Program-made: the position numbers and the translations under genes | Notes under the pieces: model-generated | What the model saw: only the letters and a program-made list of their open reading frames with translations | Database searches by the model: none | Told to the model about the DNA's origin: nothing | Source: Actinomycetes bacterium | GTDB taxonomy: Bacteria > Actinomycetota > Acidimicrobiia > Acidimicrobiales > JAMCPL01 | NCBI GenBank assembly: GCA_021846515.1 | Contig: JAJZWU010000002.1 | Coordinates: forward strand, 40,033-104,032 | Reading direction: 5' to 3' | DNA length: 64,000 nt | In this document: positions 5,977 through 62,889 of the stretch, piece by piece | How the letters are laid out: each line of letters starts with the position of its first letter | How positions within the stretch are numbered: position 1 is the stretch's first letter

Positions 5977-7406
5977 ACACTCCGTCTGATCCTACTCAAG
6001 ATGGCAGCACAGATATTTTGCCTGATGACAGTGCATTGGGCGACCTACCATACACGGGCAGAGCATCCGATACTACCGTTAATTCTTCCGACGCAGACCG
6101 GCTCGATGAATGGGTAAGTCGTGATGCTGCTGTTGTATGGCATGGTTTTACCCAGATGGCAGCTTACCAGGACAACTCTCCGGTTATAGTGGAGAGAGCT
6201 GAAGGCAGGGAAATAATCGACGTGAACGGTAAACGCTATCTTGATGCCATATCGTCGCTGTGGGTAAATACCCTTGGTCACAGAGTTAAGGAGCTTGACG
6301 AAGCCATCGTGGATCAGCTTTCAAGAGTAGCTCACACCACCATGCTCGGCAACGGCAACACTGAGGTGATAAAGCTGGCGGAGGCTCTCTCAAAGGTAGT
6401 TCCATTGGAGAAGCCCCATTTTCTCTTTGCATCTGATGGTGCGTGTGCGGTAGAGCAGGCTCTGAAGATTGCCTATCAGTATTTCGTCAACTCCGGGCAG
6501 CCAATTCGTAACCAATTTTTGGTATTGGGCAATGCTTACCATGGCGACACTGTAGGTTCTATCTCGCTTGGTGATTCAGGGTTCGAAACCCAGATATTTG
6601 ATCAGCTCAAGTTCGATACCGTGAGGTCACCCGGCTACGATGATAAAAATTGGCTGGATAAGGCTCTCTCTGTATTGCACTCGCAGGGTAGCAGGCTATG
6701 TTGTGCAGTAGTCGAACCGCTTGTGCAGGGTGCATCGGGGGTGTGGGTAGCAGAGCCGGAGCACGTATCTGTCTTTAGAGAGGCGTGCAGGGATGTCGGG
6801 GTGCTGTTTGTTGCCGATGAGGTAGCTACAGGGTTTGGGCGTACAGAGGCTATGTTTGCATCCGAAATTTGCGGCATACAACCAGACATAATGTGTATAG
6901 GTAAGGGGCTTACCGGTGGATATCTCCCTATGTCTGCGACTGTTGTATCGGACGATGTGTTTAGTCAGTTCCTTGGGGAGGATCTTGGCTTTAGAACCTT
7001 TTACCATGGTCATTCTTATGGTGGTAATGCGCTATGTGCAGCAGTTGCCTTGAGGCACCTTGAGCTTATGTCTACATGGCATGTGCTTGACAACGTACGA
7101 GATAGAAGCGACCAGCTGGCATCTTTGCTGGATGAGTATATCAGTGGCCATGAATTGGTACGAGAGATAAGACGTAGGGGACTTATGGCAGGTGTGGAGC
7201 TGGATCCATCAGGAGAGGGTTTGAGATGGGGTCGTAAGGTATGCGCCAAAGCTGTTCAAAGGGGAGTATTGTTGCGTCCCCTGGGCGATGTCGTGGTGCT
7301 GGTCTTGCCTCTTACGATTACAGAAGATGAAGTATTGCGCGTTGTCATGGTATTGAGAGAATCGTTGGATGAGTTGGCAGGAGAGGCTTGGGCGGGCTCG
7401 GGATGA
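5958..7406 (+). CDS. bioA: Adenosylmethionine-8-amino-7-oxononanoate aminotransferase
   Basis: Class III aminotransferase with VWHGFTQM and FVADEVATGFGRTE motifs, followed by bioF and bioD. The start is uncertain: ATG 5958 chosen, the ORF opens at GTG 5928. Confidence 0.85.
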   Translation: MASGPVNTPSDPTQDGSTDILPDDSALGDLPYTGRASDTTVNSSDADRLDEWVSRDAAVVWHGFTQMAAYQDNSPVIVERAEGREIIDVNGKRYLDAISSLWVNTLGHRVKELDEAIVDQLSRVAHTTMLGNGNTEVIKLAEALSKVVPLEKPHFLFASDGACAVEQALKIAYQYFVNSGQPIRNQFLVLGNAYHGDTVGSISLGDSGFETQIFDQLKFDTVRSPGYDDKNWLDKALSVLHSQGSRLCCAVVEPLVQGASGVWVAEPEHVSVFREACRDVGVLFVADEVATGFGRTEAMFASEICGIQPDIMCIGKGLTGGYLPMSATVVSDDVFSQFLGEDLGFRTFYHGHSYGGNALCAAVALRHLELMSTWHVLDNVRDRSDQLASLLDEYISGHELVREIRRRGLMAGVELDPSGEGLRWGRKVCAKAVQRGVLLRPLGDVVVLVLPLTITEDEVLRVVMVLRESLDELAGEAWAGSG

Positions 7407-7432
7407 ATGAGAGTTCGGTGAGGACGGGATGA
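7403..7432 (+). CDS. Candidate bridging sORF (9 aa, MNESSVRTG) between bioA and bioF
   Basis: The ATG overlaps the bioA TGA (ATGA at 7403-7406). Its TGA overlaps the bioF ATG (ATGA at 7429-7432). The sequence is a decayed copy of the bioF 5' end. Confidence 0.3.
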   Translation: MNESSVRTG

Positions 7433-9467: not shown

Positions 9468-10691
9468 TTAGGCCAGTTTCGGTTCTTTGGGCAGTCCAAG
9501 TACCCTTTCCCCGACTATATTGTGCATCACCTCATCTGTTCCTCCTGCAATACGCATGCCGGGTACAGAGAGTAAAAACTCCGACCATGCATATGTACCC
9601 CATTCCCCGCTGTCGGCTGTTATCTTCATGCCAAGCACTTCTGAGAGAAGATTACAGATACGGACGAAGTTCTGAGTGAGGGACAGTTTTGCTATGGACA
9701 TTTCCGGTCCCGGTAGTTGGTTTGCCGCCAGTTTCGACATGGCACGTATGTTCGTATACGATGCTATCTTAAGGTTTATAATAACCTGAGCCAGGTCCTG
9801 CCTTATTAGCGGGTCGGACGATTTACCCATCTGCCTCACCAGCTCCATTAGCCTCCACGTTCCAAGCGAACCCAGTCCTGAGCCACCTCCACCTCCACCT
9901 ATGGCTGCCCTCTCGTTCATCAATGTAGTCAAGGCCACCGTCCATCCGGCGTTCACGTCGCCCAGCCGGTGACTGTCGGGTATGCGGACATCGGTAAAGA
10001 AAACCTCGTTGAAAGATGCGCCACCTGTAATCTGGCGTAATGGCCTTACCTCCACCCCGGGAGCATGCATATCGACCACGAAGCCTGTCAGCCCTCTGTG
10101 CTTTTCTACGTTGGGATCAGTACGGCAGATTATTTCACCTATATCTGACAGATGTGCCCCCGATGTCCAGACCTTCTGTCCATTTATTACCCATTCATCA
10201 CCGTCCTTGATTGCTTTGGTCTGCAAACTGGCCAGATCGCTCCCGGAACTCGGCTCGCTGAATAGCTGGCATGCAACAATATCGCCCCGGTAGAGACTGC
10301 GCAGATATTTTTTCTTCACTTCCTCTGTTGCATGGGCGAGTATGGTAGGTGCAATCATCCCAAGACCTATACCGAATACAGCTTGTGATGGTATGTTGAA
10401 CCCAGTTTCGAGATGGTCATAGATGCGCTGATATGAGCGTGGGAGGTTTCTGCCGCCGTATTCCTCCGGTCCGGTTATCCACCCGAAACCGGCATCGAAA
10501 CGCAGTTTGGACCATGATTGAGCTTCCTTCAGATCGGCTTGATCTTCTTCAGGAGTGCGCTCTGGGAATAGGCTGACCTTGTCGGATCCCTCTCCCCATT
10601 GACGGGTTATCTCCACTCTAGGTTCAGCGTTTGACTGGAGAAAGTCGAGAGCCTCTTTCTCGAATGCTTCTTCGGAAATTACTTCTACCAT
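9468..10691 (-). CDS. Acyl-CoA dehydrogenase
   Basis: 407 aa with LFSEPSSGSD and GGTDEVMHNIVGERVLGLP motifs of the ACAD family. Confidence 0.85.
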   Translation of the reverse strand: MVEVISEEAFEKEALDFLQSNAEPRVEITRQWGEGSDKVSLFPERTPEEDQADLKEAQSWSKLRFDAGFGWITGPEEYGGRNLPRSYQRIYDHLETGFNIPSQAVFGIGLGMIAPTILAHATEEVKKKYLRSLYRGDIVACQLFSEPSSGSDLASLQTKAIKDGDEWVINGQKVWTSGAHLSDIGEIICRTDPNVEKHRGLTGFVVDMHAPGVEVRPLRQITGGASFNEVFFTDVRIPDSHRLGDVNAGWTVALTTLMNERAAIGGGGGGSGLGSLGTWRLMELVRQMGKSSDPLIRQDLAQVIINLKIASYTNIRAMSKLAANQLPGPEMSIAKLSLTQNFVRICNLLSEVLGMKITADSGEWGTYAWSEFLLSVPGMRIAGGTDEVMHNIVGERVLGLPKEPKLA

Positions 10692-17874: not shown

Positions 17875-18780
17875 ATGGATTCGAAGATGATAGACGCACC
17901 GACCGCAGATACACGTAAGGCAGAGTACCTTATTATTACCGGAATGTCAGGGGCAGGTAGGTCAACTGTTGCTGATGCCCTTGAAGATGCAGGTTGGTAT
18001 GTAATAGATAATATGCCTCCATCACTTTTGGCGGAATCGCCATCCGCTCTCGGTGCGGTAGGTGTACCACCATATAGAGTAGCGTTGGTGGTTGGGCGTG
18101 GGGGAGGCACCAGGGTCGATGACCTGCTTAATTCATTGCAGTTGTTGCGCTCCTCGGGACACTCGGTCAAGTTGCTTTACCTGGATGCTCCCGATGAGAT
18201 ATTGATTAGGCGATTTGAGGGTACTCGTAGACGGCATCCGATGTCTGGTGTGGAGCCGGGCATGAAGATACAGGAGGCAATTGCAGACGAGCGTAGAATG
18301 CTCGAACCGGTAAAGGATATAGCTGATATTGTAATCGAATCTGGTGAGCTGAATGTAAATCAACTCCGTAGCAGGATTATAGAAAGCTTTCGATCCGGCA
18401 TTGGCGGAGCTCTCCAGGTGACCGTTATGTCCTTCGGGTTCAAATATGGAGTACCGCTCGATGCTGATATGTTGTTTGACTGCAGGTTCTTGCCCAATCC
18501 CTACTGGGTAGAGGAGTTAAAGAATCTAACTGGATTGGATGATCCGGTGAAGGATTACGTCCTTGAAGGCGGGGATGCACAAGACCTCCTCGGCAGGATT
18601 GATGACTTATTTCGTTTTGTGCTTCCGTTGTACATAAGAGAGGGTAAGTCTTACATCACTCTGGCTATCGGTTGTACGGGGGGTAAGCATCGATCGGTGG
18701 TTATTGCTCAGGAACTGTCCAGCAGGATCAGTGACCTGGGGGTGGATATAAGTGTATTGCACAGGGACGTTGAACACTAA
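17875..18780 (+). CDS. rapZ: RNase adapter / nucleotide-binding protein RapZ (YvcJ)
   Basis: 301 aa with P-loop ITGMSGAGRST and a CTGGKHRS motif. Part of the uvrC-rapZ-yvcK synteny. Confidence 0.9.
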   Translation: MDSKMIDAPTADTRKAEYLIITGMSGAGRSTVADALEDAGWYVIDNMPPSLLAESPSALGAVGVPPYRVALVVGRGGGTRVDDLLNSLQLLRSSGHSVKLLYLDAPDEILIRRFEGTRRRHPMSGVEPGMKIQEAIADERRMLEPVKDIADIVIESGELNVNQLRSRIIESFRSGIGGALQVTVMSFGFKYGVPLDADMLFDCRFLPNPYWVEELKNLTGLDDPVKDYVLEGGDAQDLLGRIDDLFRFVLPLYIREGKSYITLAIGCTGGKHRSVVIAQELSSRISDLGVDISVLHRDVEH

Positions 18781-19718
18781 TGACCGAAGAACTGAGCGCG
18801 CAAGCTCCTGTCTTTGGGTCGAGGGATAATCTTAGAGGGAGTGGCGAGCGTCCTGCCGTGGTGGCCATTGGCGGTGGTCATGGCCTCTCGGTCACCCTGC
18901 GAGCATTGACGAGTTATGCAGGTGATATAAGCGGCATTGTCTCTGTTGCCGACGACGGTGGATCATCGGGCAGGCTTCGTAAGATACTTGGTACTGTTCC
19001 ACCTGGAGACCTTCGTAAATGCCTGGTTGCGTTGGCTCCTAAGGATTCGTTGCTGGCAACGCTTTTCGAGTACCGTTTCCATGATGGGGAGCTTAATGGT
19101 CATGCACTTGGCAACCTCATATTGACAGCGTTGTTTGAGCATTGTGGAGATTTGCAGACTGCTCTCAATGAGGCAGGAAAGCTGCTGTCTGCCAAGGGAA
19201 GGGTACTCCCAGCGGCTGTGCATCCTGTGGTTCTGGAGGCTGACACAGACAATGGCAAGGTAAAAGGCCAGACGGCGGTGATGAACTCAGGCTCAATCAT
19301 CCACCTGGGAATGCAGCCTACCGACCCACAGGTATCAGATGAGGTGCTGTCGGCAATACGCAACGCCGATCAGATCGTGATAGGTCCTGGATCGCTGTTT
19401 ACCAGTGTAATAGCAGCATCAGGTATACCGGCGGTGGCAAGAGAGATTGCTCAGGCTTGCTGTCCCCGTGTATATGTAGCCAATTTAAGGGAACAACCGG
19501 GGGAGACAAGCGGTTATGACATGGCCGATCATCTCCTTGCACTCCGAGAGCACGGGATTGTGGTGGATGTCGTCCTTACCGACCCGCAGGGGTTATCGTT
19601 GGGGGAGATTGAGATGTCCGGCATAGTAATAGAGAAGAGGAACATCTCGGATGCTCGCGGGCTACTGCACGATCCGGTAAAGCTGGGTGAAGCCCTCAGT
19701 GGATTAGTGCATCTATAA
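18780..19718 (+). CDS. yvcK: YvcK / CofD-like gluconeogenesis-morphogenesis factor
   Basis: 312 aa with AIGGGHGLS and GPGSLFTS motifs. The start overlaps the rapZ stop (TAATG). Confidence 0.9.
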   Translation: MTEELSAQAPVFGSRDNLRGSGERPAVVAIGGGHGLSVTLRALTSYAGDISGIVSVADDGGSSGRLRKILGTVPPGDLRKCLVALAPKDSLLATLFEYRFHDGELNGHALGNLILTALFEHCGDLQTALNEAGKLLSAKGRVLPAAVHPVVLEADTDNGKVKGQTAVMNSGSIIHLGMQPTDPQVSDEVLSAIRNADQIVIGPGSLFTSVIAASGIPAVAREIAQACCPRVYVANLREQPGETSGYDMADHLLALREHGIVVDVVLTDPQGLSLGEIEMSGIVIEKRNISDARGLLHDPVKLGEALSGLVHL

Positions 19719-19796
19719 TGATTCGAGCGACCTGGATGCGCCTTATTTATCAAGGCCGGCGAAAGTTCGTACCAAATTAATGCATCTATAATAATT
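19703..19796. repeat. Direct repeat of the yvcK 3' end including the stop codon (19/21 nt, period 73)
   Basis: ATTAGTGCATCTATAATGATT (19703-19723) versus ATTAATGCATCTATAATAATT (19776-19796). Confidence 0.85.
19718..19780 (+). CDS. Candidate sORF (20 aa, MIRATWMRLIYQGRRKFVPN) coupled to the yvcK stop
   Basis: The ATG overlaps the yvcK TAA (TAATG). The ORF ends in a second TAATG that lies inside the duplicated copy of the yvcK 3' end. Confidence 0.2.
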   Translation: MIRATWMRLIYQGRRKFVPN

Positions 19797-25273: not shown

Positions 25274-26290
25274 ATGCGTTATGTAGATGTCCATGGAGTC
25301 AAGCTATCTGCTATTGGTTTGGGTACCTGGCAATTTGGCTCCAAGGAGTGGAACTATGGAAGCAGCTACGAGGAGAAGGAATCGGCTGCTATAGTGCATA
25401 AGGCTTTGGACCTGGGTGTCAACGTAATAGATACTGCTGAGGCTTACGGCTGGGGTCGGTCGGAAAGGGCGGTCGGTAGGGCGATTGTATCTCGCAGGGA
25501 TGAAGCCTTTATTGCTACAAAAGTATTTCCCGTTATGCCGGTGGAGCCTGTAATTAAGGATAGAGCCAGGCGTAGTGCCTCCAGGCTTGGTGTGCAGAGT
25601 ATAGATCTGTATCAGATACATTGGCCGAACCCTGTAATCCCTTTGAACCTGACTATGAGGGCAATGGCATCGCTCCAGAGGAGCGATTTGGTCAAGAACA
25701 TAGGGGTATCAAACTTTTCACTGGCTTTGTGGCAGCAGGCTGAGCGTTTTTTATCAGGCAAGGTGCTGAGCAACCAGGTGCGCTACAATTTGCTCGACAG
25801 AAGGATAGAGAACAACGTACTTCCCTGGGCGGAAGAAACAGGGCATGTGGTGATAGCTTACAGTCCACTTGCACAGGGGGTTTTATCCGGCAGGTATTCC
25901 AGAGGTAATATTCCCACCGGTCTAAGGGCTTATACGGCAGCCTTCCAGCCTGAAAATCTTGATAAGGCGATACCGGTAATAGATGCCTTGAAACGTATAG
26001 CCTTGGAACACGGCGCCACGCCTACGCAGGTGGCCTTGGCATGGCTTATAAGCAAACCTAATGTAGTGGTGATACCAGGCGCCAGTTCCATATCTCAGCT
26101 GCAGGCTAATGTTGAGTCGGCGCAGCTGGATTTGACTGATGAAGATATAAGTGAATTGAACGACGTTTCCAGTATCTATAAATTGTCGTCCGGTTTGACC
26201 GATCAGCTTACACGTGCCGCCAGGGCTGGTCAGCTACTGGCGTCAAGAACGCTAAAAAGATATATTCGGCCGGTTAAATCAGCCTGGTAA
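25274..26290 (+). CDS. Aldo/keto reductase
   Basis: 338 aa with LGTWQFG, IDTAEAYG, DLYQIHWP and IPGASS motifs. Confidence 0.85.
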   Translation: MRYVDVHGVKLSAIGLGTWQFGSKEWNYGSSYEEKESAAIVHKALDLGVNVIDTAEAYGWGRSERAVGRAIVSRRDEAFIATKVFPVMPVEPVIKDRARRSASRLGVQSIDLYQIHWPNPVIPLNLTMRAMASLQRSDLVKNIGVSNFSLALWQQAERFLSGKVLSNQVRYNLLDRRIENNVLPWAEETGHVVIAYSPLAQGVLSGRYSRGNIPTGLRAYTAAFQPENLDKAIPVIDALKRIALEHGATPTQVALAWLISKPNVVVIPGASSISQLQANVESAQLDLTDEDISELNDVSSIYKLSSGLTDQLTRAARAGQLLASRTLKRYIRPVKSAW

Positions 26291-26310
26291 CGATCAAATC
26301 AGCCTGGTAA
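26276..26310. repeat. Exact 15-nt direct repeat containing the aldo/keto reductase stop codon (period 20)
   Basis: AAATCAGCCTGGTAA occurs at 26276-26290 and again at 26296-26310. Confidence 0.9.
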
Positions 26311-39458: not shown

Positions 39459-40255
39459 ACACTGAGTTAGCAGGTATAACTGAATCTGCACATTCGCGGC
39501 GAGCTTTACTGTTGTGCGGGCTGGATTCAAGTATAGCCGTGCTCAATGCACTTGCTGTTACATTGGGCAACGAGCCGGGATGGGTTGTTACATCGGCCGG
39601 TGTAAGCTTACAGAGTAATAGCTATCAAGAGTTCGCCTTTCCGGTAGATGATGCTGCACCTACCGATTTTGACATAGCGTTGCAGGGTTGTATCAATACT
39701 GTTCCGAGTTTGGTAGAGAACCTGGCAGCATCTTCGGGGTGCCGTAATGTATGGATATGCGGATTTGGCATCATGGCAACTGCCGTTATGCTTGCCCTGT
39801 CAGGTGGTTCATTGGGCATCTTTGGTTCTTCTTTGGATACGTCGAAAGATGGCGTGGAGGTTGCCGGACTTGCATGTGTGGGAATGGAGGTACCGGTCGG
39901 TAACGGAGAAGTTCCCGAGAAAGCGTATGGGGCAGTATCAGAGGAAGCGGCCAACGATCGCGGAAAACCAGGACTTAGTCATGAGGGGACAGGTAAACTA
40001 GAGGGGTATAATTTGTCACTGGGAGACTATATTATAGAGGCTGTTGAGTCGATCAATGCCTTAAGTTCCCTGATGGTTATTCATGGCCTGGAAGATAAGA
40101 TTACCCCTCCCAATTATGCCCGTAGAGCAGTAAGTTCCTGCAGATCAGCTAAGGCCGATTCGCTCAGATTGCTGGGTGGCGCCGGACATGATCTCTATGC
40201 AGATCCCAGGGTAGTTGCATTACTGATAGGTTGGATGGACAGGACTCCGCTATGA
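39455..40255 (+). CDS. Alpha/beta-hydrolase-fold-like protein, nucleophile apparently missing
   Basis: C-terminal VIHGLEDKITP and GAGHDLY look like the Asp and His motifs. The expected GxSxG position reads GFGIM. The ATG overlaps the upstream stop (ATGA). Confidence 0.45.
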   Translation: MNTELAGITESAHSRRALLLCGLDSSIAVLNALAVTLGNEPGWVVTSAGVSLQSNSYQEFAFPVDDAAPTDFDIALQGCINTVPSLVENLAASSGCRNVWICGFGIMATAVMLALSGGSLGIFGSSLDTSKDGVEVAGLACVGMEVPVGNGEVPEKAYGAVSEEAANDRGKPGLSHEGTGKLEGYNLSLGDYIIEAVESINALSSLMVIHGLEDKITPPNYARRAVSSCRSAKADSLRLLGGAGHDLYADPRVVALLIGWMDRTPL

Positions 40256-41418: not shown

Positions 41419-42308
41419 GATCATTTATAACTGGCGGATACGGATTTGTCGGTCGATGGATGGTATCGCTTTTGGAGAGCCAGGGCGATGATGTGCGCTT
41501 GCTAAGTAAGGGTACAGACATAAGGGACTTTGATTCACTCGCCGGCGAATTGATCGCCCATGAGCCAGATGTGATATATCATTTCGCTGGCTTTACTCAT
41601 GTGGGACTCTCATGGGAACAGCCGAGAGATGCTATCGAGATCAATGCTATTGGCGCCTTGAATGTTCTGGAGGCTGCCCGTAAATGCAATAATTCGCCGA
41701 GAATACTACTGCCGAGTTCTGCGGAGATTTATGGTACAGTCGACGAAGCGGATCTGCCCCTTGGCGAAAGTTCAGCAATAAGACCAATGACCCCGTATGC
41801 TGTAAGCAAGGTAACAGTAGAGTACCTTGGCCTTCAGTCATATATGGCTTACGGGTTGGACGTCGTTATGGCCAGACCATTTAACCATATAGGCCCCGGA
41901 CAACCGTCATCGTTTTTTGTACCGGCACTGGCAGAGAGGATTTTGAATGCACAAAAGGTGGGTGGGCACTCAGTATCGGTAGGCAATTTATCCAGCAGGA
42001 GGGATCTTACTGACGTAAGAGACGTTGTAAGGGCATACAGGATGCTTGCCGGTAGCGGAAAAGCAGGTGAAATATATAATGTTTGCACCGGAGAGGATGT
42101 ATCTATGGCCCAGGTGGCTGAGTCGATGGCGGAGATTGCCAATGTGGAGATAGAGTTCGTGCCGGATCCGTCACTTATGAGACCGGTGGACATCCCTGTT
42201 CTTAGAGGAGATCCTCAGAAGTTAAAAATGGCAACAGATTGGGCTCCGCAGTACAGCTTGAGAGAGACGTTGGCAGACGTGCTGGACGAACGAAGATCGA
42301 TTTTATGA
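41415..42308 (+). CDS. NAD-dependent sugar epimerase/dehydratase/reductase (GDP-sugar reductase-like)
   Basis: ITGGYGFVGRW Rossmann motif and YAVSK (YxxxK). ATGA overlap with the upstream gene. Confidence 0.8.
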   Translation: MRSFITGGYGFVGRWMVSLLESQGDDVRLLSKGTDIRDFDSLAGELIAHEPDVIYHFAGFTHVGLSWEQPRDAIEINAIGALNVLEAARKCNNSPRILLPSSAEIYGTVDEADLPLGESSAIRPMTPYAVSKVTVEYLGLQSYMAYGLDVVMARPFNHIGPGQPSSFFVPALAERILNAQKVGGHSVSVGNLSSRRDLTDVRDVVRAYRMLAGSGKAGEIYNVCTGEDVSMAQVAESMAEIANVEIEFVPDPSLMRPVDIPVLRGDPQKLKMATDWAPQYSLRETLADVLDERRSIL

Positions 42309-42348
42309 AATGCCATAAACTGTTGCCGGTCGAGCGGGATGGCGTTCA

Positions 42349-42768
42349 ATGAGCGTAGATGTCAATGGGCAGTCTGGTAGTACCGTTAATCGGACATTAT
42401 TGGGGAAACTTGGAGAGCGCCAGACAGTACTTGCGTACAGGCGCAAGGGTTACAGCATTCTCTCTACAAATTGGCGAAGCAATAGAAGCGGTGTACGTGG
42501 CGAGATAGACATTGTTGCGTCCAAGGGTGACACTCTTGTCTTCTGTGAGGTAAAGACGCGTGCTCAGGATAGGTACGGGGAGCCGGAAGAGGCAGTTACG
42601 GCAGTCAAGCAGGCAAGGCTGAGGAGACTTGCGGGCGAGTGGCTCAATGAGCATCGTACAGATGGCTCTTTGGATGGCCATTTGAGGGAAATTCGCTTCG
42701 ATGTATCTGCGGTTGTGCTTGGAGAAGACGGCCACCTGTCTGCTCGGCTCATCAGGGATGCCTTTTGA
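42349..42768 (+). CDS. yraN: YraN family (UPF0102) endonuclease-like protein
   Basis: 139 aa. GEIDIVASKGDTLVFCEVKTR is typical of the family. Confidence 0.8.
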   Translation: MSVDVNGQSGSTVNRTLLGKLGERQTVLAYRRKGYSILSTNWRSNRSGVRGEIDIVASKGDTLVFCEVKTRAQDRYGEPEEAVTAVKQARLRRLAGEWLNEHRTDGSLDGHLREIRFDVSAVVLGEDGHLSARLIRDAF

Positions 42769-45680: not shown

Positions 45681-46067
45681 ATGGAAACCCCCGAAAATTT
45701 ACGTTATACCAATGAACATGAATGGGTGTACCTTGATGGTATGTCCGTCAAAGTAGGGATTACCGACTACGCTCAAGATGCGCTCGGCGATGTCGTATAT
45801 GTGGATCTACCCGATCTGGGAAAGATATTCTCGCCTGGAGATGTATTTGGCGAGATTGAATCGACCAAGTCTGTTTCTGAATTGTATGCTCCAATGAGCG
45901 GTAAGGTAGTGGAGATTAATACAGAATTGGAAGATCATCCCGAACTTGTCAATAGTGACCCTTATGGCCAGGGGTGGTTGTGTGTCTTTGAGGCAACTAA
46001 TCCATCTGACTATGATAGTCTTTTGGATGCCGCCGGGTATCGGGCTGCAATCTCAACCGAGCAATGA
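45681..46067 (+). CDS. gcvH: Glycine cleavage system H protein
   Basis: 128 aa with YTNEHEW and the lipoyl-lysine motif EIESTKSVSELYAP. Confidence 0.95.
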   Translation: METPENLRYTNEHEWVYLDGMSVKVGITDYAQDALGDVVYVDLPDLGKIFSPGDVFGEIESTKSVSELYAPMSGKVVEINTELEDHPELVNSDPYGQGWLCVFEATNPSDYDSLLDAAGYRAAISTEQ

Positions 46068-46165
46068 CATCGGTTATGTTGCCTACGCCTCCAGGACCCA
46101 CTGCTGCAATCTCAACGGAGCAATGCAATGATATTGATTGCATAGTAGTAGGATTGAGATCATGA
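46064..46165 (+). CDS. Candidate bridging sORF (33 aa) between gcvH and the FHA gene
   Basis: The ATG overlaps the gcvH TGA (ATGA at 46064-46067). Its TGA overlaps ATG 46162 (ATGA). It re-encodes the gcvH C-terminus AAISTEQ from a 22/23-nt repeat (46044-46066 and 46103-46125). Confidence 0.3.
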   Translation: MTSVMLPTPPGPTAAISTEQCNDIDCIVVGLRS

Positions 46166-51032: not shown

Positions 51033-52421
51033 ATGAAAACATTGGACATGAAAGCAATATCAGAAGTACTGGTCTCGCGCAGGCAGGTTCTGGGTGGTGC
51101 CGTTGTGGGAGCAGCAGGAATTACTCTAGCTGGTTGTTCGTTTTTGGGGGGAGGTTCCTCCGGTAGTGGCATATCAGGAACGTTGCCCAATCCGTCGCTG
51201 CCCGAGGGTACCGATACCATTCCCCAGATAGACAATATTGTCATCGTGGTGATGGAGAACCGCTCATATGACACGATACTTGGCATGCTTGGACGCGGTG
51301 ATGGTTATACGCTCAACTCCCAGGGACAGCCCACCAATACCAATCCAAACGGTAATGGCCAGTACATAGAGGCCTTTCATCTTCCGACAGAATGCCGTTC
51401 ATATACGACACCGAACAACACATGGAACCCAACCCATGAAGCATACGACGGGGGCAAGATGGACGGTTTTGTCACCAATGGCAATGGGGCAGCTGCTATG
51501 GGGTACTACACTTCTACGGACATACCATTCACCAATAGCCTTGCTTCGGTATTCCCGATAAACGACCGTTATTTCTGTTCTCTGCTAGGCCCGACATTTC
51601 CGAATCGCCGGTACCTGATTTCGGGTACATCCGACGGATTGGTAGATGACTTTACTACGTTTTATGATATACCCAGTGATGTGCAGAGTCATCCGGCAAA
51701 TGGAACCATATTCGACCACTTGAACAAACATTCAATATCGTGGAAAAATTATTTCTCGGTCTTCCCCACAATTGCACTCTATCCTTACCTGCTAACTCAA
51801 AACGTAGGTAAGTACGTTCCAATAGAAGAATTCTTTTCCGACGCGTCATCAGGTAATTTACCATCAGTATCTCTGGTGGATCCTGATTACCTTACCAACA
51901 GTGAGGGAGAGGGTCAGGATATTCAGTTTGGTGATAATTTCCTTGCATCAATTGTCAACGCCGTGATGAAAGGGCCAAAATGGTCAAGTACTTTACTGGT
52001 ATGGACTTACGATGAGGCTGGTGGGTATTACGATCATGTGTTACCTCCACCCGCCCCGATACCCGACAATGTGGCGCCTCAGTTATCGTCGAGTGACATA
52101 CAAGCAACATTCGACCGTTACGGTATTCGGGTGCCGATGGGGCTGGTATCGCCTTATGCAAAGCAGAATTACGTCTCCAGCAATGTATCCGACCATACCT
52201 CTATCTTAAGGCTGATCGAGACCAAGTGGAATTTACCTGCTCTCACCAATAGGGATGCAGCGGCAAACAACCTTATGGACATGGTGGACTTCCAGTCATC
52301 TCCTGCTTTTGCTACCCCGCCAAAACTGGCTGCGCCTGCGGACTGGTCAGCTCATCTGTGCATACCGGGGACTACCGGAACAATTCCTCCACCATCTGCC
52401 GTGCTGTCACAGCCTGCATAG
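51033..52421 (+). CDS. Phosphoesterase family protein (phospholipase C / AcpA acid phosphatase family), Tat signal and lipobox
   Basis: SRRQVLGGAVVGAAGITLAGC signal and the family motif IVIVVMENRSYDTILG. The ORF opens at 51009; ATG 51033 is preferred. Confidence 0.8.
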   Translation: MKTLDMKAISEVLVSRRQVLGGAVVGAAGITLAGCSFLGGGSSGSGISGTLPNPSLPEGTDTIPQIDNIVIVVMENRSYDTILGMLGRGDGYTLNSQGQPTNTNPNGNGQYIEAFHLPTECRSYTTPNNTWNPTHEAYDGGKMDGFVTNGNGAAAMGYYTSTDIPFTNSLASVFPINDRYFCSLLGPTFPNRRYLISGTSDGLVDDFTTFYDIPSDVQSHPANGTIFDHLNKHSISWKNYFSVFPTIALYPYLLTQNVGKYVPIEEFFSDASSGNLPSVSLVDPDYLTNSEGEGQDIQFGDNFLASIVNAVMKGPKWSSTLLVWTYDEAGGYYDHVLPPPAPIPDNVAPQLSSSDIQATFDRYGIRVPMGLVSPYAKQNYVSSNVSDHTSILRLIETKWNLPALTNRDAAANNLMDMVDFQSSPAFATPPKLAAPADWSAHLCIPGTTGTIPPPSAVLSQPA

Positions 52422-52559
52422 ATGCATTAGCTTGGCTGGCTGAGTTCTTCAGGAGCATGCCTGGCAGCTGTTGGGTGGCTTGGTGCGGCGATCATACTTG
52501 ATGGATTGTCGATTGAGCATCCACCATGAGACGTTCATTGTGAGCTAATCTCAAATTGT

Positions 52560-53117
52560 ATGTTTGTCTTAGGCGTAGACCCTGGTTTAACTCGTTGTGG
52601 ATATGGTCTTATTAGGCAGGAAGCCAGGCATGCAAGTGTCCGTAGCCCTGCGGTGGCAGTTAGTGGTGGAATTATCGCGACAGATCAAAGACTCGACATC
52701 CCTAGAAGACTAAGTATGCTCATGGAAGAGCTTAAGCTGCTGATAGAAGAGAGTCGCCCTGACGTAGTGGTTGTGGAAAGGGTGTTTTTTCAGGCAAATG
52801 CCAAGACTGCTGTCGGTATCGGGCAAGCTGGTGGACTTGCGTTGGCTCTGGCGGATTCTGCCGGTTGCGAGATTGCTCAGTACAGCTCCAATGAAGTTAA
52901 GCTGGCGGTTACCGGATATGGAGGTGCTACCAAGCTGCAGGTGCAGCGTATGATCTCGTCATTGCTGGGTCTTAATGGACTTCCATCGCCCCCCGATGTG
53001 GCAGACGCGCTTGGGCTTGCACTATGTTACCTCCTCAACCTGCCAATGCGAGAGGCTTTGATTGCATCTGGTGAGCCATTATCGGGTGTCGCGGCTATGA
53101 GGTCAGGTGACGGATGA
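52560..53117 (+). CDS. ruvC: Crossover junction endodeoxyribonuclease RuvC
   Basis: 185 aa with VLGVDPGLTRCGYG, VVVERVFF and ADALGLALC motifs. Confidence 0.9.
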   Translation: MFVLGVDPGLTRCGYGLIRQEARHASVRSPAVAVSGGIIATDQRLDIPRRLSMLMEELKLLIEESRPDVVVVERVFFQANAKTAVGIGQAGGLALALADSAGCEIAQYSSNEVKLAVTGYGGATKLQVQRMISSLLGLNGLPSPPDVADALGLALCYLLNLPMREALIASGEPLSGVAAMRSGDG

Positions 53118-53188
53118 TCGGTTGGTTAATAGTCAATGTATGCGGTATGCTCACCGGGAGGTTGCGGAAAGTGCAGAGTAGCCGATGA
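53114..53188 (+). CDS. Candidate bridging sORF (24 aa, [24 protein letters not shown]) between ruvC and ruvA
   Basis: ATGA overlap with the ruvC stop and ATGA overlap with the ruvA start. Its 5' end is a decayed copy of the ruvA 5' end (first 12 nt identical). Confidence 0.3.
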   Translation: MIGWLIVNVCGMLTGRLRKVQSSR

Positions 53189-54015
53189 TCGGTTGGCTGA
53201 AGGGTAATGTACGTGCCGTCGATCCGGGAGGATTTCTTATACTCGACGTAGGAGGTGTCGGTTATAAGGTAAATGTTCCCCAATTTATGGTAGACATTCC
53301 AGCCGGTGGAGAGTTGGAACTTTTTGTACATACCCATGTCAGGGAGGACGCTATTACCCTTTACGGGTTTGCTACCGATGCAGAGAGGCTGGCTTTTGAG
53401 AAGCTGATTGGAGCTCACGGCGTGGGCCCTTCGTTGGGATTGGCCATACTGTCTGTTCTCGGGATCGGAGACCTGTATGACGTTGTTGTCAGCGAGAATA
53501 TAGATTTGCTCTGTACCGTGCCAGGGATTGGCCGAAAAACTGCCGCTAAATTGGCAATAGATCTGAAATCCAGTATTGATGCGCTGGCTGCCGCTCAAGA
53601 TTCCATGAGTGTTGCCTTGACCGGAGATGCATTGAATCATAGTTCCTTGAGCAATTCCCGGGTCGGCGAAGAAGGAGGAGACGATGGCAATAGCAGAGGG
53701 GTAAGTGGCGGTGGTGGAGATGGTGGCAACTACGCCAGGGGCGACTATGCCATGGCTGACAATGCCGGCGGTGGCAGTGAAAGCGATTCCCTCGAAAATA
53801 GAAGCAGCAGCAATGGTCGTAGTGGGAGCAGGAAGGTTGGCAGTAACAGTATGGATAGTGCCCGCGCGCGATCAGAAGCCAGGTCTGCACTGTTGTCTCT
53901 CGGATACAGCTTGGAAGAGATCCGGGTTGCAATGAGAGATGCGGGTAGCGGTCAGGCGACAGAGGATATATTGAGAAATGCGTTAAAGCAATTAAACAGG
54001 AATCGAGGCGAGTAG
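53185..54015 (+). CDS. ruvA: Holliday junction branch migration protein RuvA with an expanded linker
   Basis: MIGWLKGNV start, OB and HhH domains ([12 protein letters not shown]), and C-terminal domain III ([15 protein letters not shown]). A G/S/N/D-rich insert of about 85 aa separates domains II and III. Confidence 0.9.
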
Positions 54016-54017
54016 CT

Positions 54018-55100
54018 ATGGGTGCCAGGAAAGAGGTTATAAACAGGGACTCATCGGAGTATGATGATGTGTTACTGGTTGATTCCCGCCAGACAGCCCC
54101 TGGAGCGATATCTGGTGAGTATGCCGAAGAAGCCAAACTGAGGCCCAGGGCGCTTGCTGATTTTACCGGACAGAGGGATCTAGTCGAACACCTCAGTATA
54201 GTCATTGAGGCAGCAAGAAAGCGAGGAGGATGTGCCGATCATATACTGTTTGCAGGGCCTCCCGGCCTTGGCAAGACATCGCTGGCAGGTATAGTGGCGG
54301 CAGAGATGGGGGTAGGTATGAGGATCACCTCCGGGCCGGCACTTACCAGGGCGGGAGACCTAGCTGCCATACTTACCGATATGCAAGAGGGGGATGTGCT
54401 CTTCATAGACGAGATTCATCGTATGGTTGTGGCAACTGGCGAAATACTCTATCCCGCGATGGAGGACTTCAAGATAGATATAGTAATAGGTAAAGGTCCT
54501 GCAGCCAAGTCTATAAGGTTGGATATTCCGAGATTTACCCTGGTGGGGGCTACAACCAGGATGGGTATGCTCGCTGGGCCGCTTCGTGACAGGTTTGGTT
54601 TTGTGGGCAGGCTTGATCTGTACCCCGTAGAAGATCTGGCTGAAATTGTGTTGCGTTCTGCCGGCATACTTGAAATAGAGATAAATGCTGATGCAGCATT
54701 GGAGATTGCCAAACGTTCAAGGGGTACGCCCAGGATAGCCAATAGGCTACTGCGCAGGGTGCGTGATTTTGTGGAGGTGCGTTCTGACGGAATCATTACT
54801 CCTGCTTCAGCCATTGCCGGGCTGGATACATTTGGAGTGGACGAACTTGGGCTCGATAAGGTGGACAGATCTATACTTGATGTGCTGTGCGTACGGTTTG
54901 ACGGCAACCCGGTAGGGCTGACCACTCTTGCACAATCTGTCGGAGAAGATCCGGATACCATTGAAGATGCCTACGAACCGTACTTACTCCAGATTGGGCT
55001 AATGCAGCGTACTCCCAGGGGACGGATAGCAAGTGCACGGGCATTTGCGCATCTGCGCATAGAACACCCCGTGATGGGAAGGTTCGACGTTTCACGCTAG
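54018..55100 (+). CDS. ruvB: Holliday junction DNA helicase RuvB
   Basis: 360 aa with [11 protein letters not shown] (Walker A), LFIDEIHR and [15 protein letters not shown] motifs. Confidence 0.95.
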
Positions 55101-55191: not shown

Positions 55192-55752
55192 GTGTTTGAT
55201 ACAATATTTAATAGTGGTAACATAATTATGGCAGGCGTTATTCATCTTGCTGCGGCTGTTTCGCACTCGAAAACCGCATCTTCGAGTTCGTCTTCTTCCG
55301 GTAGCATAATATATCTGCTTTTCATGGTGCTTATCGTGTATGTGGGCTGGAGACTCATCTTCAGGCCGCAGTCTCAACGAGCCAAGCAGCAGCGACAGGC
55401 CATGTCAGCGTTGAGTGAGGGGGATGATGTCATTACTACGGCCGGAATATATGGCACTATCCTCGAAATAGATGGTGACAAGGTTCATGTGCGCGTGAGC
55501 GACAACTGTGTCCTTACTATGGCAAGGGGCAGTATTGCGCAGAGATTGACCATGTCTGCGTCGGAGGACGATTCTTATGAATCGGAATCAGGGCTTAACG
55601 AGTCACCTGAGGAGTCGACCGATGACTATGGCGCAGAGGAGGAAGGTGCTTACGATCATGATGATCAAGATGATGATGATGATGATGATGAATCTGAGGA
55701 TATCGTTGCAGGAGGTGCCGATGATGAGTATGATAATCGTAACAGAATGTAG
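55192..55752 (+). CDS. yajC: Preprotein translocase subunit YajC with an acidic C-terminal tail
   Basis: TM helix followed by RPQSQRAKQQRQAMSALSEGDDVITTAGIYGTI. GTG start 8 nt after GAGGAAAG. The tail contains (GAT)7 at 55669-55689. Confidence 0.8.
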   Translation: MFDTIFNSGNIIMAGVIHLAAAVSHSKTASSSSSSSGSIIYLLFMVLIVYVGWRLIFRPQSQRAKQQRQAMSALSEGDDVITTAGIYGTILEIDGDKVHVRVSDNCVLTMARGSIAQRLTMSASEDDSYESESGLNESPEESTDDYGAEEEGAYDHDDQDDDDDDDESEDIVAGGADDEYDNRNRM

Positions 55753-55791: not shown

Positions 55792-57324
55792 ATGAAACGT
55801 TCTTATCTTCTCTCATTGTTTGGAGCCATTATTGTGGCATTGGTTGCATTTGGTGCAGTCCTTTCTGCCGGGTGGTCGCCGAAGCTTGGGCTGGACCTTG
55901 CCGGTGGCGAGGAAGTCGTATATCGTCCTGCTCATGCAGTTCCTCCAAACTATATGACCGAGTCAGTCGATATTATCAATAGCCGTATAAATGGCCTTGG
56001 ACTATCGGGGGCAAATGTCGGTACGCAGGGGGGCGATATTATTGTCCAGCTTCCTGGAGTAAAGAATCCGCAGCAGGTAATAAACACCATAGGTGAGACG
56101 GCACAGCTTTATTTCAGGCCTGCACTCTGTGAGGCGCCACCGTATACTCCCCCTACCGCCAGCAAGGGCAGTAAAGCTCCTACTTCTCCGGGACCGTTGC
56201 CCACGTCATGCCCGTCGGCCAACCAGCTTACCGCTACAAATCTTGGTGTAAAAGCCAGCTCGTCTTCGACGACAGGTTTTACAGAGAACCCTGTACCGGC
56301 AGACAGTGCATTGGCCAGCTACCCCAGCACTCCTGCAAGCAAAGATAATCCATCCTCTGTTGTGCTGCTGCCAGCGTCCAAGTCGTCAGGGCAGGCTGGA
56401 GTGCGTTACCTACTGGGTCCTGCGCAGGTGACAGGTAAGGCACTTTCAGGCGCCTCTTCGACGTTTATCCCGGGTACAGGGTGGGTGGTCAACTACACTC
56501 TTAACTCGGCAGGTGCAGTAGCATGGGATAAACTTGCTCAAGCCCAGTTCCACGCTATTGTAGCCATAGATATGGATGCCCAAGTTGTATCTGCCCCTAT
56601 TATACAGCCGTCACAGTCTGCCTTTACTTCCTTTGGTGGTAGCGGCCAGATAAGTGGCAACTTTACCCATACAAGTGCGTCCAGTCTGGCGCTGGTACTC
56701 CAGTATGGTTCTTTGCCTGTGCCGCTTCACAGGATAACAACAGAGACTGTATCGGCCACGCTCGGACATTCATCATTGAGAGCCGGGCTATTGGCGGGAA
56801 TCATAGGGTTGGCAATTGTCTTGCTCTATATGCTGTTCTATTACCGTGTACTTGGGCTGGTAGTTTTAACTGGGTTACTGCTCACCGCTGCGTTGCTGTG
56901 GGCAATCGTCTCTATTTTCAGCCATGTAAGTGGGCTCACCCTGGACCTCGCAGGGGTTACCGGATTGATCGTATCTGTAGGGATTACCGTTGATTCGTAT
57001 GTAGTGTATTTCGAACGCCTGAAAGATGAAGCCAGATCAGGTCGCTCGATAAGGACAGGAGTCGAGAGGGGCTTCAAGAACGCCTTTCGAACTGTTCTGG
57101 CTGCTGACCTTGTGTCACTGCTGGCTGCCGTGCTGTTGTGGTTCCTAGCTATTGGAACCGTAAAAGGTTTTGCCTTTTTCTTGGGACTCTCTACCCTGCT
57201 TGACATCTTTACCACCTACTTCTTTACCCGGCCATTGGTAATTATGCTTGGGCAGAATAGAGAGGTTACAGAAGCTCGTCATATTGGAGTGTCGAGTGGT
57301 TTGGCTGCGGAGGCGCATTCATGA
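55792..57324 (+). CDS. secD: Protein translocase subunit SecD
   Basis: 510 aa with LGLDLAGG, the periplasmic domain and C-terminal TM bundle (GITVDSYVVYFERLKDE). Confidence 0.9.
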   Translation: MKRSYLLSLFGAIIVALVAFGAVLSAGWSPKLGLDLAGGEEVVYRPAHAVPPNYMTESVDIINSRINGLGLSGANVGTQGGDIIVQLPGVKNPQQVINTIGETAQLYFRPALCEAPPYTPPTASKGSKAPTSPGPLPTSCPSANQLTATNLGVKASSSSTTGFTENPVPADSALASYPSTPASKDNPSSVVLLPASKSSGQAGVRYLLGPAQVTGKALSGASSTFIPGTGWVVNYTLNSAGAVAWDKLAQAQFHAIVAIDMDAQVVSAPIIQPSQSAFTSFGGSGQISGNFTHTSASSLALVLQYGSLPVPLHRITTETVSATLGHSSLRAGLLAGIIGLAIVLLYMLFYYRVLGLVVLTGLLLTAALLWAIVSIFSHVSGLTLDLAGVTGLIVSVGITVDSYVVYFERLKDEARSGRSIRTGVERGFKNAFRTVLAADLVSLLAAVLLWFLAIGTVKGFAFFLGLSTLLDIFTTYFFTRPLVIMLGQNREVTEARHIGVSSGLAAEAHS

Positions 57325-57371
57325 GATATGGATTAGTGTGTCGAGGAGTTTCTATGGAGTTGGCTGAATGA
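57321..57371 (+). CDS. Candidate bridging sORF (16 aa, MRYGLVCRGVSMELAE) between secD and secF
   Basis: ATGA overlap with the secD stop (57321-57324) and ATGA overlap with the secF start (57368-57371). TTGGCTG is repeated upstream of both junctions. Confidence 0.3.
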   Translation: MRYGLVCRGVSMELAE

Positions 57372-61611: not shown

Positions 61612-62889
61612 ATGACTTTTGAACCGTTACGTTCGCCGGCCGGTACTCACGACGTACTATGGCCACAGTCAGCCAGATGGGAGAGGATAATTGGCGATTT
61701 TGCCGATCGTGCGAGGCTGTATGGGTATAAGCTGCTTATTACGCCGGTCATAGAGGATGCGCGGCTTTTTTCACGCGGCTTTGGCGATGCCAGTGATGTG
61801 GTGGGTAAGGAGATGTATGTCTTTGAAGACAGGGGAGGGCGTACCCTTGCGCTCCGGCCGGAGGGGACAGCCTCTGTGGTGAGGGCATATATACAGCATA
61901 GACCTGCTACTCCGTGGAAAGTGTGGTACCTGACACCGGCGTTTCGCTATGAAAGACCTCAGGCTGGGAGGTATCGCCAGCACCACCAGATTGGGGTAGA
62001 AGCCCTGGGAGTGGATTCCCCCGAGCAGGATGCCGAGATCATTGATCTGGCCATGGGAACGATCCGTGCTGCAGGCCTGAGCGATATTGAGTTGCTCGTC
62101 AATTCGATGGGCTGCGAGGTGTGCAGACCCGTCTATGAGGGGGTATTAAGAGCATTTCTGGCGGAGAATGTACATGCTATGTGCGACTACCATCGTGAGC
62201 ACTGGAGCGAAGTACCGTTACGTGTACTTGACTGCAAGACCGGTGAGTGCAGGGCTGTAACTGATTCAGCGCCGAGAATATCTGAACACCTCTGTGATGC
62301 CTGCATGACGGCATTCGATACTGTCCAGACCGAACTTCAGGTACTTGGTATTACATATACTCTGGAGCATCGTTTGGTACGCGGTTTCGACTACTATACA
62401 CGTACGACATTTGAGATTATATCACATTCACTTAATGCTTCACAGAATGCGGTAGGTGGAGGGGGTCGCTACAATGGTTTATCGGAGATTCTTTCAGGTC
62501 CACCTACCCCAGGTATCGGTTTTGGTATAGGCTTGGAGAGATTGCTGGTGGCATGCGATTCCGAAGGAGCAGTGGAGTGGCACGATCCGGGTGTGGATGT
62601 GTACATAGCTGAGCTTGGACGTGACACTGAAGTAAGTCTCTTGGCGCACCAATTAAGGAACGCCGGCTACTCGGTTGAGAGGTCTTACGAGAACAAGTCT
62701 CTAAAAGCACAGCTACGATATGCAGGCAGGCTTGGGGCGCGTATAGCTCTTATAATTGGCGACAGGGAAATTGCGGAACGTGAGGTTATATTAAAGCCGC
62801 TTGTATCGAAAGACGAACAGTTCACGGTTGGCTGGGATCGTGTAATACAGGAAACAGGTAGATGGTTGGAGAAATGGAAAAAACAATAG
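61612..62889 (+). CDS. hisS: Histidine--tRNA ligase
   Basis: 425 aa with class II motifs (LRPEGTASVVRAY, FRYERPQAGRYRQHHQ, GGGRY). Confidence 0.95.
   Translation: MTFEPLRSPAGTHDVLWPQSARWERIIGDFADRARLYGYKLLITPVIEDARLFSRGFGDASDVVGKEMYVFEDRGGRTLALRPEGTASVVRAYIQHRPATPWKVWYLTPAFRYERPQAGRYRQHHQIGVEALGVDSPEQDAEIIDLAMGTIRAAGLSDIELLVNSMGCEVCRPVYEGVLRAFLAENVHAMCDYHREHWSEVPLRVLDCKTGECRAVTDSAPRISEHLCDACMTAFDTVQTELQVLGITYTLEHRLVRGFDYYTRTTFEIISHSLNASQNAVGGGGRYNGLSEILSGPPTPGIGFGIGLERLLVACDSEGAVEWHDPGVDVYIAELGRDTEVSLLAHQLRNAGYSVERSYENKSLKAQLRYAGRLGARIALIIGDREIAEREVILKPLVSKDEQFTVGWDRVIQETGRWLEKWKKQ

Follow-up and report, generated by a model that had tools for sequence, protein, structure and literature searches.

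The window analysed here is a stretch of 64,000 nucleotides (nt; positions 40,033 to 104,032 of contig JAJZWU010000002.1, assembly GCA_021846515.1) from an uncultured actinobacterium of mine drainage and mine tailings, which is also present in NCBI as GCA_027388175.1; positions below count from its first nucleotide. It carries on the plus strand the genes ruvC and ruvA, specifying proteins of 185 and 276 amino acids, and between them a spacer of 67 nt. The stop codon of ruvC (TGA, 53115–53117) sits within an ATGA (53114–53117), the ATG of which opens a mini-ORF (open reading frame) of 24 codons. The stop of this mini-ORF (TGA, 53186–53188) falls in turn within the ATGA (53185–53188) with which ruvA begins, so that an ATGA overlap is found at either end (Table 1). 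RuvC was identified by its Pfam RuvC motif [9e-38], and the homologues of RuvA possess RuvA_N, HHH_5 and RuvA_C domains. Because an in-frame TAG lies two codons upstream, the ATG at 53185 is the first possible start of ruvA. A first-pass annotation, made from the sequence before this analysis, had placed ruvC, the mini-ORF and ruvA at these same positions and had described the double ATGA; both are borne out by the sequence and the list of ORFs. The mini-ORF is annotated as a gene in no public assembly.

Table 1. Features of the ruvC/ruvA junction and of the other sites discussed, in coordinates of the window unless a related lineage (L followed by a number) is named
Feature	Position	Strand	Basis or remark
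ruvC coding sequence	52560..53117	+	ORF list, Pfam RuvC 9e-38; tail length and frame differ from relatives
Shine-Dalgarno-like GAGGTCAGGTGA	53099..53110	+	Within ruvC tail, 3 nt upstream of mini-ORF ATG
Bridging mini-ORF, 24 codons	53114..53188	+	ATGA at both ends
Repeat copy 1 core, relic of ruvA start region	53113..53140	+	79% identity to 53184-53211, spacing 71
CCGGGAGG, second in-register block of the ruvA relic	53154..53161	+	Partner 53224-53231, lag 70, P=0.0032
Putative decayed copy of ruvC 3' tail with relic stop TAG 53179-53181 (ruvA frame) and weakened ribosome-binding region of ruvA	53162..53184	+	MAFFT against ruvC tails of relatives; Shine-Dalgarno energy -4.7
Repeat copy 2 core, functional ruvA start region	53184..53211	+	88% identity to relatives across 52 nt
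ruvA coding sequence, 276 aa	53185..54015	+	ORF list; domains of homologues; upstream in-frame TAG
bioA/bioF bridging mini-ORF, MNESSVRTG then stop	7403..7432	+	Lag 26 = ATGA spacing (P=0.007); lag 52 scores too
Epimerase/UPF0102 bridging mini-ORF, MKCHKLLPVERDGVQ then stop	42305..42352	+	Repeat test P ~0.99
gcvH/FHA bridging mini-ORF, 33 codons	46064..46165	+	Repeat 46044-46066 / 46103-46125, 96% identity, spacing 59
secD/secF bridging mini-ORF, MRYGLVCRGVSMELAE then stop	57321..57371	+	secD-tail repeat, lag 49, P=0.017
Short upstream ORF of secF	57354-57371; L179 ~9974-10004; L181 ~3345-3368		
Repeat sites with spacing of ~66-78 nt	53113, 19708, 32651; L171 7332, 7482, 12029; L179 1008; L183 3679/3695, 9664; L174 8170		

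From -130 to +80 the junction is without a single base difference in five independent assemblies (ENA, NCBI GCA_027388175.1 and two Logan runs among their sources), and the contigs of four runs from two studies contain it with zero variants, indels or joints. It is fixed in the sampled population and is not an assembly artefact. That the source is a metagenome-assembled genome could raise the suspicion of an assembly or sequencing error, to which we give next to no credence: the same junction is present in MEGAHIT-type contigs, in the NCBI metagenome-assembled genome and in Logan contigs, from several samples and two studies, and the two copies described below are too diverged to have been collapsed or expanded by an assembler.

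RuvA itself is longer than its homologues in the Acidimicrobiales (276 against ~200 amino acids). Its residues ~150–240 (window 53640–53900) include a low-complexity insert of ~80 residues, rich in G, S, D and N, between the HhH domain and domain III; the close relatives possess this insert too, in variable length. Two long antisense ORFs on the minus strand span the gene (53095–53640, 181 aa; 53546–54205, 219 aa), and these are probably spurious though unusually long for a genome of ~50% GC. A contig of 197 nt from the mine-drainage run X4 is 87% identical to ruvA (window 53223–53417) at ~10 times the depth of the window's organism, and therefore a more abundant relative co-occurs in that sample.

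A repeat search of the junction revealed a direct repeat of 28 nt with a spacing of 71 nt and 79% identity, one copy at the ATG of the mini-ORF and the other at that of ruvA. The 12 nt following each ATG are identical, as had been remarked in the first-pass annotation, and 23 of the first 32 nt match, where about 22 had been counted by eye. The similarity is unevenly distributed: the opening 13 nt of the two cores are the same, the remainder agrees at ~63%, and the part corresponding to the ruvC tail is near random. The local alignment scores 29, against a mean of 15 (sd 2.3) for shuffled sequences, none of the 2000 shuffles scoring as high. A second block, CCGGGAGG, recurs in register at 53154–53161 and 53224–53231, with a lag of 70; a run of 8 or longer anywhere within lags 69–73 has P=0.003. 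Tandem Repeats Finder reported no repeat within 52900–53400, because the copies are too decayed. The tetranucleotide CGGG at 53083, 53155 and 53225 is a possible breakpoint microhomology, to which no statistics attach. Beyond the ruvA-like part, the 3' part of the spacer aligns with the ruvC tails of relatives (MAFFT), GTAGCCG-ATG standing opposite GTAACCG-ATG and GTAGCTG-ATG. Rfam, searched at a permissive E-value across 52300–53600, gave no RNA family.

On the strength of these matches the junction was duplicated in tandem, and the spacer is the degenerate copy. The unit would on the best reading be ~71 nt, with homology reaching from roughly -23 to +48 of the ATG. In this respect the shuffles, the in-register block and the relatives all agree with the earlier proposal of a duplication of ~71 nt, which left a degenerate ruvA 5' end as spacer.

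One might also consider a mobile intergenic repeat resembling the MIRU elements, inserted at the ruvA start codon and bringing its own coupled ORF; a unit of 71 nt, located between genes of an operon and containing an ORF which overlaps both neighbours, fits the description of these elements in PMC12548453. When all bridging spacers of the window were compared by blastn with the window, its flanks and the relatives, the matches were to self and to orthologous sites only. The only matches of the ruvC/ruvA spacer are to the sequence on either side of it and to the start of the orthologous ruvA in relatives, with no dispersed copies in window, flanks or relatives, and its copy number does not vary across the five assemblies and four runs. 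A dispersed family of this type was rejected upon the blastn result, and we consider such an insertion barely credible.

For comparison we used related lineages, labelled L and a number, with RuvA 49–72% and SecF 66–79% identical to those of the window. Six related lineages have a single-copy junction, with a spacer of 3–8 nt or an overlap of 1 nt. The junction reads AGG TAA ccg ATGATCGG in L001/L171, L002/L174/L180 and L179, the form TAA-ccg-ATG being counted for four lineages; GGTAGCTGATGATT with a 1-nt overlap (TGATG), or TAG plus 8 nt, in L166–L170 (the GCA_021799845 group); and TGA tttc GTG in L182. Since these six lineages are without it, the duplication is derived and species-specific, which is the outcome of the alignment of orthologous junctions that had been put forward with the first-pass annotation as a means of dating the event. 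That it arose after the window species split from its known relatives appears well supported. Scans for RuvA in genome and metagenome contigs found no relative between 72% and 100% identity, and a RuvB look-up found no divergent strain carrying the duplication.

The relatives do not bear out the earlier assumption that it was an ancestral ATGA overlap of ruvC and ruvA which became duplicated, given their short spacers or 1-nt overlap. Judging from these junctions, the ancestral genes were separated by very few nucleotides, the ruvC stop standing shortly ahead of ruvA and in its frame, and did not share an ATGA. The relic of this ancestral stop and spacer is the GTAGCCG-ATG before ruvA, with its TAG at 53179–53181. 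The present ATGA overlap between ruvC and the mini-ORF is secondary, the product of an indel in the fast-evolving tail of ruvC. In L182 the stop of ruvC is the TGA that corresponds to 53108–53110; in the window this TGA has lost the reading frame, and ruvC reads on for three codons to the ATGA. Five columns of the window's ruvC tail are also present in L166 and L182 in the alignment, and the polarity of the indel is uncertain.

Based upon the energy of pairing with the anti-Shine-Dalgarno sequence, the site before the mini-ORF (GAGGTCAGGTGA, 53099–53110) is one of the strongest in the window (-10.1 kcal/mol, rank 2 of 32 window starts). Before ruvA the value is -4.7 kcal/mol, as compared with -7.3 to -11.4 before ruvA in the six relatives. 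From these values it appears that the ribosome-binding site has been kept on the relic and lost on ruvA, and that GAGGTCAGGTGA is the retained ancestral ribosome-binding site of ruvA. Consensus scans of the plus strand of the spacer gave no promoter-like or terminator-like site.

A scan for double-ATGA ORFs between long ORFs gave five in the window, all on the plus strand. In addition to ruvC/ruvA these lie at bioA/bioF, gcvH/FHA and secD/secF, three junctions for which the same architecture had been reported in the first-pass annotation, and at epimerase/UPF0102. In all five the A-TGA and the ATG-A flanking the spacer stand in phase 2, with the frame open; a phase-0 pair at 11195 was left out of the five because its upstream ORF is antisense to a likely real gene. 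Given the ATGA contexts, the joint probability of the right phase and an open frame in all five is 1.4e-5. Even with every case a duplication, in which the open frame comes free, five of five in phase has P=0.004. The ATGA contexts themselves are ordinary, A preceding 10 of 32 TGA stops (near base composition) and following 25 of 49 ATG starts. By a strict scan the window contains 5 such junctions per 64 kb, while in 158 unrelated ruvA-centred loci (767 kb) there are 8, of which four are bridging. A looser definition finds 22 in the 767 kb of unrelated loci and yields a smaller contrast (P=0.04). The claim that double-ATGA junctions exceed chance is thus upheld by the joint probability and by the strict counts of bridges (5 for the 64 kb of the window, 4 for the 767 kb of unrelated loci); the excess is real, though the pattern was noticed post hoc.

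We propose the following explanation for the ruvC/ruvA junction. It is well supported that a tandem duplication took in approximately 71 nt, from ~23 nt before the end of ruvC to ~48 nt into ruvA. Neither gene was disrupted, since copy 1 supplies the end of ruvC and copy 2 the beginning of ruvA. The spacer of 67 nt is accordingly made up of a defunct ruvA start, with ribosome-binding site, ATG and ~16 codons, and behind it a defunct ruvC tail. As the length of the unit is 3n+2, the ORF of the defunct start ends on the TGA that overlaps the ATG of ruvA proper. The ruvC stop would then have been shifted onto the ATG of the mini-ORF by a subsequent indel in the tail of ruvC. Ribosomes would either load at the strong Shine-Dalgarno site of copy 1 or come by termination-reinitiation from ruvC, translate the 24 codons, stop at the ATGA and reinitiate on ruvA, the Shine-Dalgarno site of which has decayed. 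The peptide would be a by-product. The reading phase would act as a filter, in that duplications in other phases would pass the ruvA start out of frame or break the coupling and hence be lost; only in-phase duplications would be tolerated, because in these termination-reinitiation coupling is kept. The same process may account for most of the other double-ATGA junctions of the window. Taken as a whole, from tandem duplication of the junction through relic ORF and ribosome relay to phase filter, we consider this explanation somewhat probable.

RuvA and RuvB, and likewise SecD and SecF, are subunits of complexes. Short gene overlaps are enriched among the subunits of complexes, and a spacer of ~20 nt nearly abolishes termination-reinitiation coupling in E. 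coli and Haloferax (Huber et al. 2023, PMC10666635). Short ORFs, those of MIRU elements included, are thought to deliver ribosomes via -4 overlaps (PMC12548453; bioRxiv 10.1101/2022.06.01.494293). A relay is favoured here by the strong Shine-Dalgarno site, which now precedes the mini-ORF instead of ruvA, by the phase bias of five out of five, by the coupling limit of ~20 nt (PMC10666635), and by the intact state of the relic's opening 13 nt, the remainder having dropped to ~63% identity or less. That the mini-ORF relays ribosomes from ruvC to ruvA is plausible, and we would put its chances at about even.

The mini-ORF might on the other hand specify a micropeptide with a function of its own, such as a small membrane peptide or a regulator, having as it does a strong Shine-Dalgarno site, an ATG and a hydrophobic N-terminal half. 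Its sequence is, however, that of a frame-shifted decay product of the RuvA N-terminus joined to an out-of-frame ruvC tail; it is absent from all relatives and, by construction, has no homologues outside the species. We regard a functional peptide as very improbable.

Several observations weigh against the proposed relay. The Shine-Dalgarno energies of the window starts have a median of -4.85 against a background of -3.9, indicating weak use of such sites overall, so that the weak site of ruvA (-4.7) stands out from its orthologues and not from the genome median; with usage this weak genome-wide, ruvA may need no Shine-Dalgarno site. In three of the five cases (bioF, UPF0102 and FHA) the real gene has a stronger site than the mini-ORF. 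In the folding of 53085–53225 the minimum-free-energy structure pairs codons 2–4 of the mini-ORF with the ruvA start; 15 of 200 shuffles fold equally well (z=-1.57), which falls short of significance. The sequencing runs holding the sequence are of DNA only, no RNA run having been found. No diverged relative with the duplication was found in which the frame could be compared. The closest relatives have no bridge between secD and secF, and a further 20 kb of contig on the flanks of the window yielded neither another bridging ORF nor another junction repeat. Taken alone, the ruvC/ruvA junction is also unremarkable in its reading frame, the chance of an open frame being 0.25 (shuffled spacers) and that of the right phase 1/3, and a second frame is open over most of the spacer. 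Thus of the argument made earlier from the open frame, the observation stands that the frame is open onto the second ATGA, but as evidence it is weak by itself. As 71 = 3x23+2, the bridging ORF would have been present from the duplication onward, and an open frame is by itself no sign of selection.

It is possible, if rather unlikely, that the duplication is real and the mini-ORF a neutral relic with no role, ruvA initiating from its own weak site or independently of a Shine-Dalgarno sequence. A 3n+2 duplication yields an ORF at birth, with the modest value of P(open) just given, and the weak use of Shine-Dalgarno sites in the genome, the three bridging ORFs of five with a weaker site than the following gene, the missing secD/secF bridge and the 20 kb flanks without a further case would all be expected for a relic of this kind. 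Against it stand the in-phase position of all five junctions (P=0.004 even if all are duplications), the loss here of a ruvA Shine-Dalgarno site which six relatives have kept, together with its retention on the relic, and the perfect conservation of the relic's initiation region. Furthermore, a gap of 67 nt should abolish coupling in an operon for the RuvAB complex (PMC10666635).

Turning to the other bridging junctions, four of the five have significant local repeats whose lag agrees, exactly or nearly, with the distance between the two ATGAs: bio at 26 and 52, gcvH at 59, ruv at 71 and sec at 49. The recurrence is confirmed, and on the evidence of these repeats can be traced largely to junction duplications. 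At bioA/bioF the N-terminus of BioF, MSEAWDERTG, recurs in decayed form as the mini-ORF peptide (MNESSVRTG), and a third copy is the tail of BioA (GEAWAGSG before the stop); L176, a 99%-identical strain, is identical to the window at this junction. At epimerase/UPF0102 the repeat test found none (P ~0.99).

The gcvH/FHA mini-ORF reads the duplicated gcvH tail (AAISTEQ) in the gcvH frame, and the syntenic relative L171 has at this position a 28-nt spacer without the duplicate. Within 46103–46131 a 5-nt GCAAT microduplication (GAGCAATGCAATGA) disables the duplicated gcvH stop, and the mini-ORF therefore reads through to the ATGA of the FHA gene. In L171 a 9-codon ORF runs from the gcvH ATGA and ends with TAA 2 nt ahead of the FHA ATG.

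At secD/secF, the distant relative L182 has a 6-codon bridge (ATGA..TTGA), while L179–L181 have no bridge but an internal upstream ORF (uORF), ME..E before the stop, ending on the secF ATGA. The general form of this uORF, ATG GAG ... GCT/ACT GAA TGA (MELAE, MEGTEITE or MEIAE, each followed by the stop), ends on the secF ATGA in four lineages. Its GGAG may simply be the Shine-Dalgarno site of secF.

The window as a whole has eight short-range direct repeats, and four of these lie on gene ends. Two gene-end duplications have no bridge, 19703–19723 / 19776–19796 and 26271–26290 / 26291–26310. The latter is a 20-nt tandem duplicate in perfect register (26271–26310) of the last 17 nt and TAA of an aldo-keto reductase gene (25274–26290), and is absent in the relative L172. 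In the former, the 3' end of gene 18780–19718 (TAATGATT) recurs 73 nt downstream (19703–19796). The stop of this gene shares a base with an ATG (TAATG) which opens a 20-codon ORF, itself ending at a TAATG in the second copy; this chain of 1-nt overlaps stops short of the next gene, which begins at TTG 19874 with its own GGAGG. Direct 4-nt overlaps occur in the window at 632 (ATGA) and 46650 (GTGA), and a 1-nt overlap at 18780 (TAATG). Two more ATGA overlaps would result if the genes concerned truly began at the in-frame ATGs of 40252 and 41415.

A spacing near 71 nt is not peculiar to ruvC/ruvA. In ~179 kb of non-redundant sequence from the clade, 10 of 28 local direct repeats have a spacing of 66–78 nt. 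Eight of the 28 fall at 70–74 nt (P=2e-7 against a uniform spread), whereas in the controls 6 of 118 fall at 60–80 nt. Nearly all the clade repeats of ~66–78 nt are situated at gene ends, and the peak is not seen in unrelated loci. The youngest events have the form A-x-A, in which A is an identical stretch of 32–38 nt and x is 28–38 nt largely unlike either flank; x sometimes begins like the flank, and the length of A is not constant. Two pairs give the states before and after such an event: L179 is single-copy where L171, L174 and L180 have a 66-nt event, and within one species a 70-nt event at the 3' end of L174 ruvB is lacking in L180 and L002. In this last case (L174 8170–8271 as compared with L180 5600–5660 and L002 3890–3950) a 32-nt duplicate including the ruvB stop is accompanied by 38 nt, of which ~13 nt resemble the right flank. 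An independent 71-nt event with 36 nt identical is found at the bioA 3' end of L183 (9664–9770, GCA_027331745.1), where it replaces the C-terminus of BioA, which ends ...LDELAVHLENRLSHESVTRC before the stop instead of the relic ...LDELAVHFANS.

These events raise the question of whether the ruvC/ruvA spacer could be an insertion measured by a ruler, that is, a target duplication of ~32–38 nt around ~28–38 nt of new DNA, made by off-target Cas1-Cas2 activity or by a staggered-cut integrase. The clade-wide spacing, the identical A of the youngest events with an x largely unlike the flanks, and the pairs before and after all speak for such a process, and off-target spacer integration is documented according to PMC7054753 and PMC6698737. 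At ruvC/ruvA, however, the middle segment has in-register homology with ruvA (P=0.003), and homology also with the ruvC tail, so the duplicated stretch would be ~60–70 nt and not 32–38. The A-x-A geometry was seen in other events of the relatives and not at this junction, and A varying over 32–38 nt with a constant sum makes a poor fit to a fixed repeat ruler. No exact match to the three x segments searched was found in IMG/VR, nor did seven x segments give a match by blastn to clade sequence (250 kb). The in-register middle homology favours a plain tandem duplication for ruvC/ruvA, and we think an A-x-A insertion at this junction improbable. For the ~70-nt events in the relatives, off-target Cas1-Cas2 integration would be one candidate. 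It may also be that the clade possesses a length-gauged process, Cas1-Cas2-like or of an undescribed staggered-cut/template-switch type, which inserts ~70 nt, namely an exact target duplication of 32–38 nt and 28–38 nt of non-local sequence; the insertions would survive mainly at gene boundaries, selection keeping only those with a relic ORF in phase with the next start codon, and the process would form a continual source of intergenic DNA and relay mini-ORFs; this we put forward as a doubtful and very tentative idea.

Among known systems, off-target spacer integration by Cas1-Cas2 was reportedly described by Nivala, Shipman and Church in 2018. The youngest ~70-nt events of the clade resemble it in their repeats of 32–38 nt around 28–38 nt of unrelated DNA; ruvC/ruvA differs in the in-register homology of its middle, and the repeat length is not constant. 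MIRU elements, as described in PMC12548453 (after Supply et al. 1997), are units of 46–101 bp between the genes of operons, with a short ORF overlapping the flanking stop and start at -4, which presumably maintains translational coupling of the downstream gene. The ruvC/ruvA spacer shares with them the 71-nt unit in an actinobacterial operon and the ORF overlapping both neighbours at ATGA. Unlike MIRU, which are dispersed and apparently mobile and have a consensus and a variable tandem copy number, each spacer here copies its own gene ends.

A second resemblance is to the ATGA/NUGA chains of termination-reinitiation, including the uORF-ORF and uORF-uORF pairs of M. tuberculosis (PMC6728339; PMC10666635; bioRxiv 10.1101/2022.06.01.494293), in the shared ATGA, the weak downstream Shine-Dalgarno site and the order gene-short ORF-gene. 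Those uORFs lie in 5' leaders or have no assigned origin. In the present case the short ORF is flanked by two genes of one operon and can be recognized as a copied gene start, the coupling being inferred. Synthetic bicistronic designs (PMC12548453) likewise combine a strong Shine-Dalgarno site with a short ORF whose stop overlaps the target start; those are engineered, while the arrangement described here is natural and would have come about by duplication. MIRU and termination-reinitiation thus already provide the principle of a short ORF with a -4 coupling at each end. The origin by local junction duplication and the moving of the ribosome-binding site to the relic would make the present case a new variant.

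Two observations concern other genes. The YajC protein (window 55192–55752; L162/L187 3175–3726) has a long acidic C-terminal tail rich in D and E, and differs in length by 3 residues between assemblies of the same species (186 vs 183 aa). In public gene calls aspS starts 28 nt inside the 3' end of hisS (window 62862–62889).

The clade-wide preference for ~71 nt points to a mutational mechanism behind it. The ruvC/ruvA junction represents a natural experiment, in which a relic ORF that links two -4 overlaps has apparently taken the harm out of a 67-nt insertion in the RuvABC operon. If the proposed explanation is true, duplications of gene boundaries would be a source of short ORFs within operons and of intergenic DNA, and the reading phase would filter which structural mutations an operon tolerates. 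It would also supply a rule for annotation, by which mini-ORFs of this type would be recorded as coupling devices and not as peptides.

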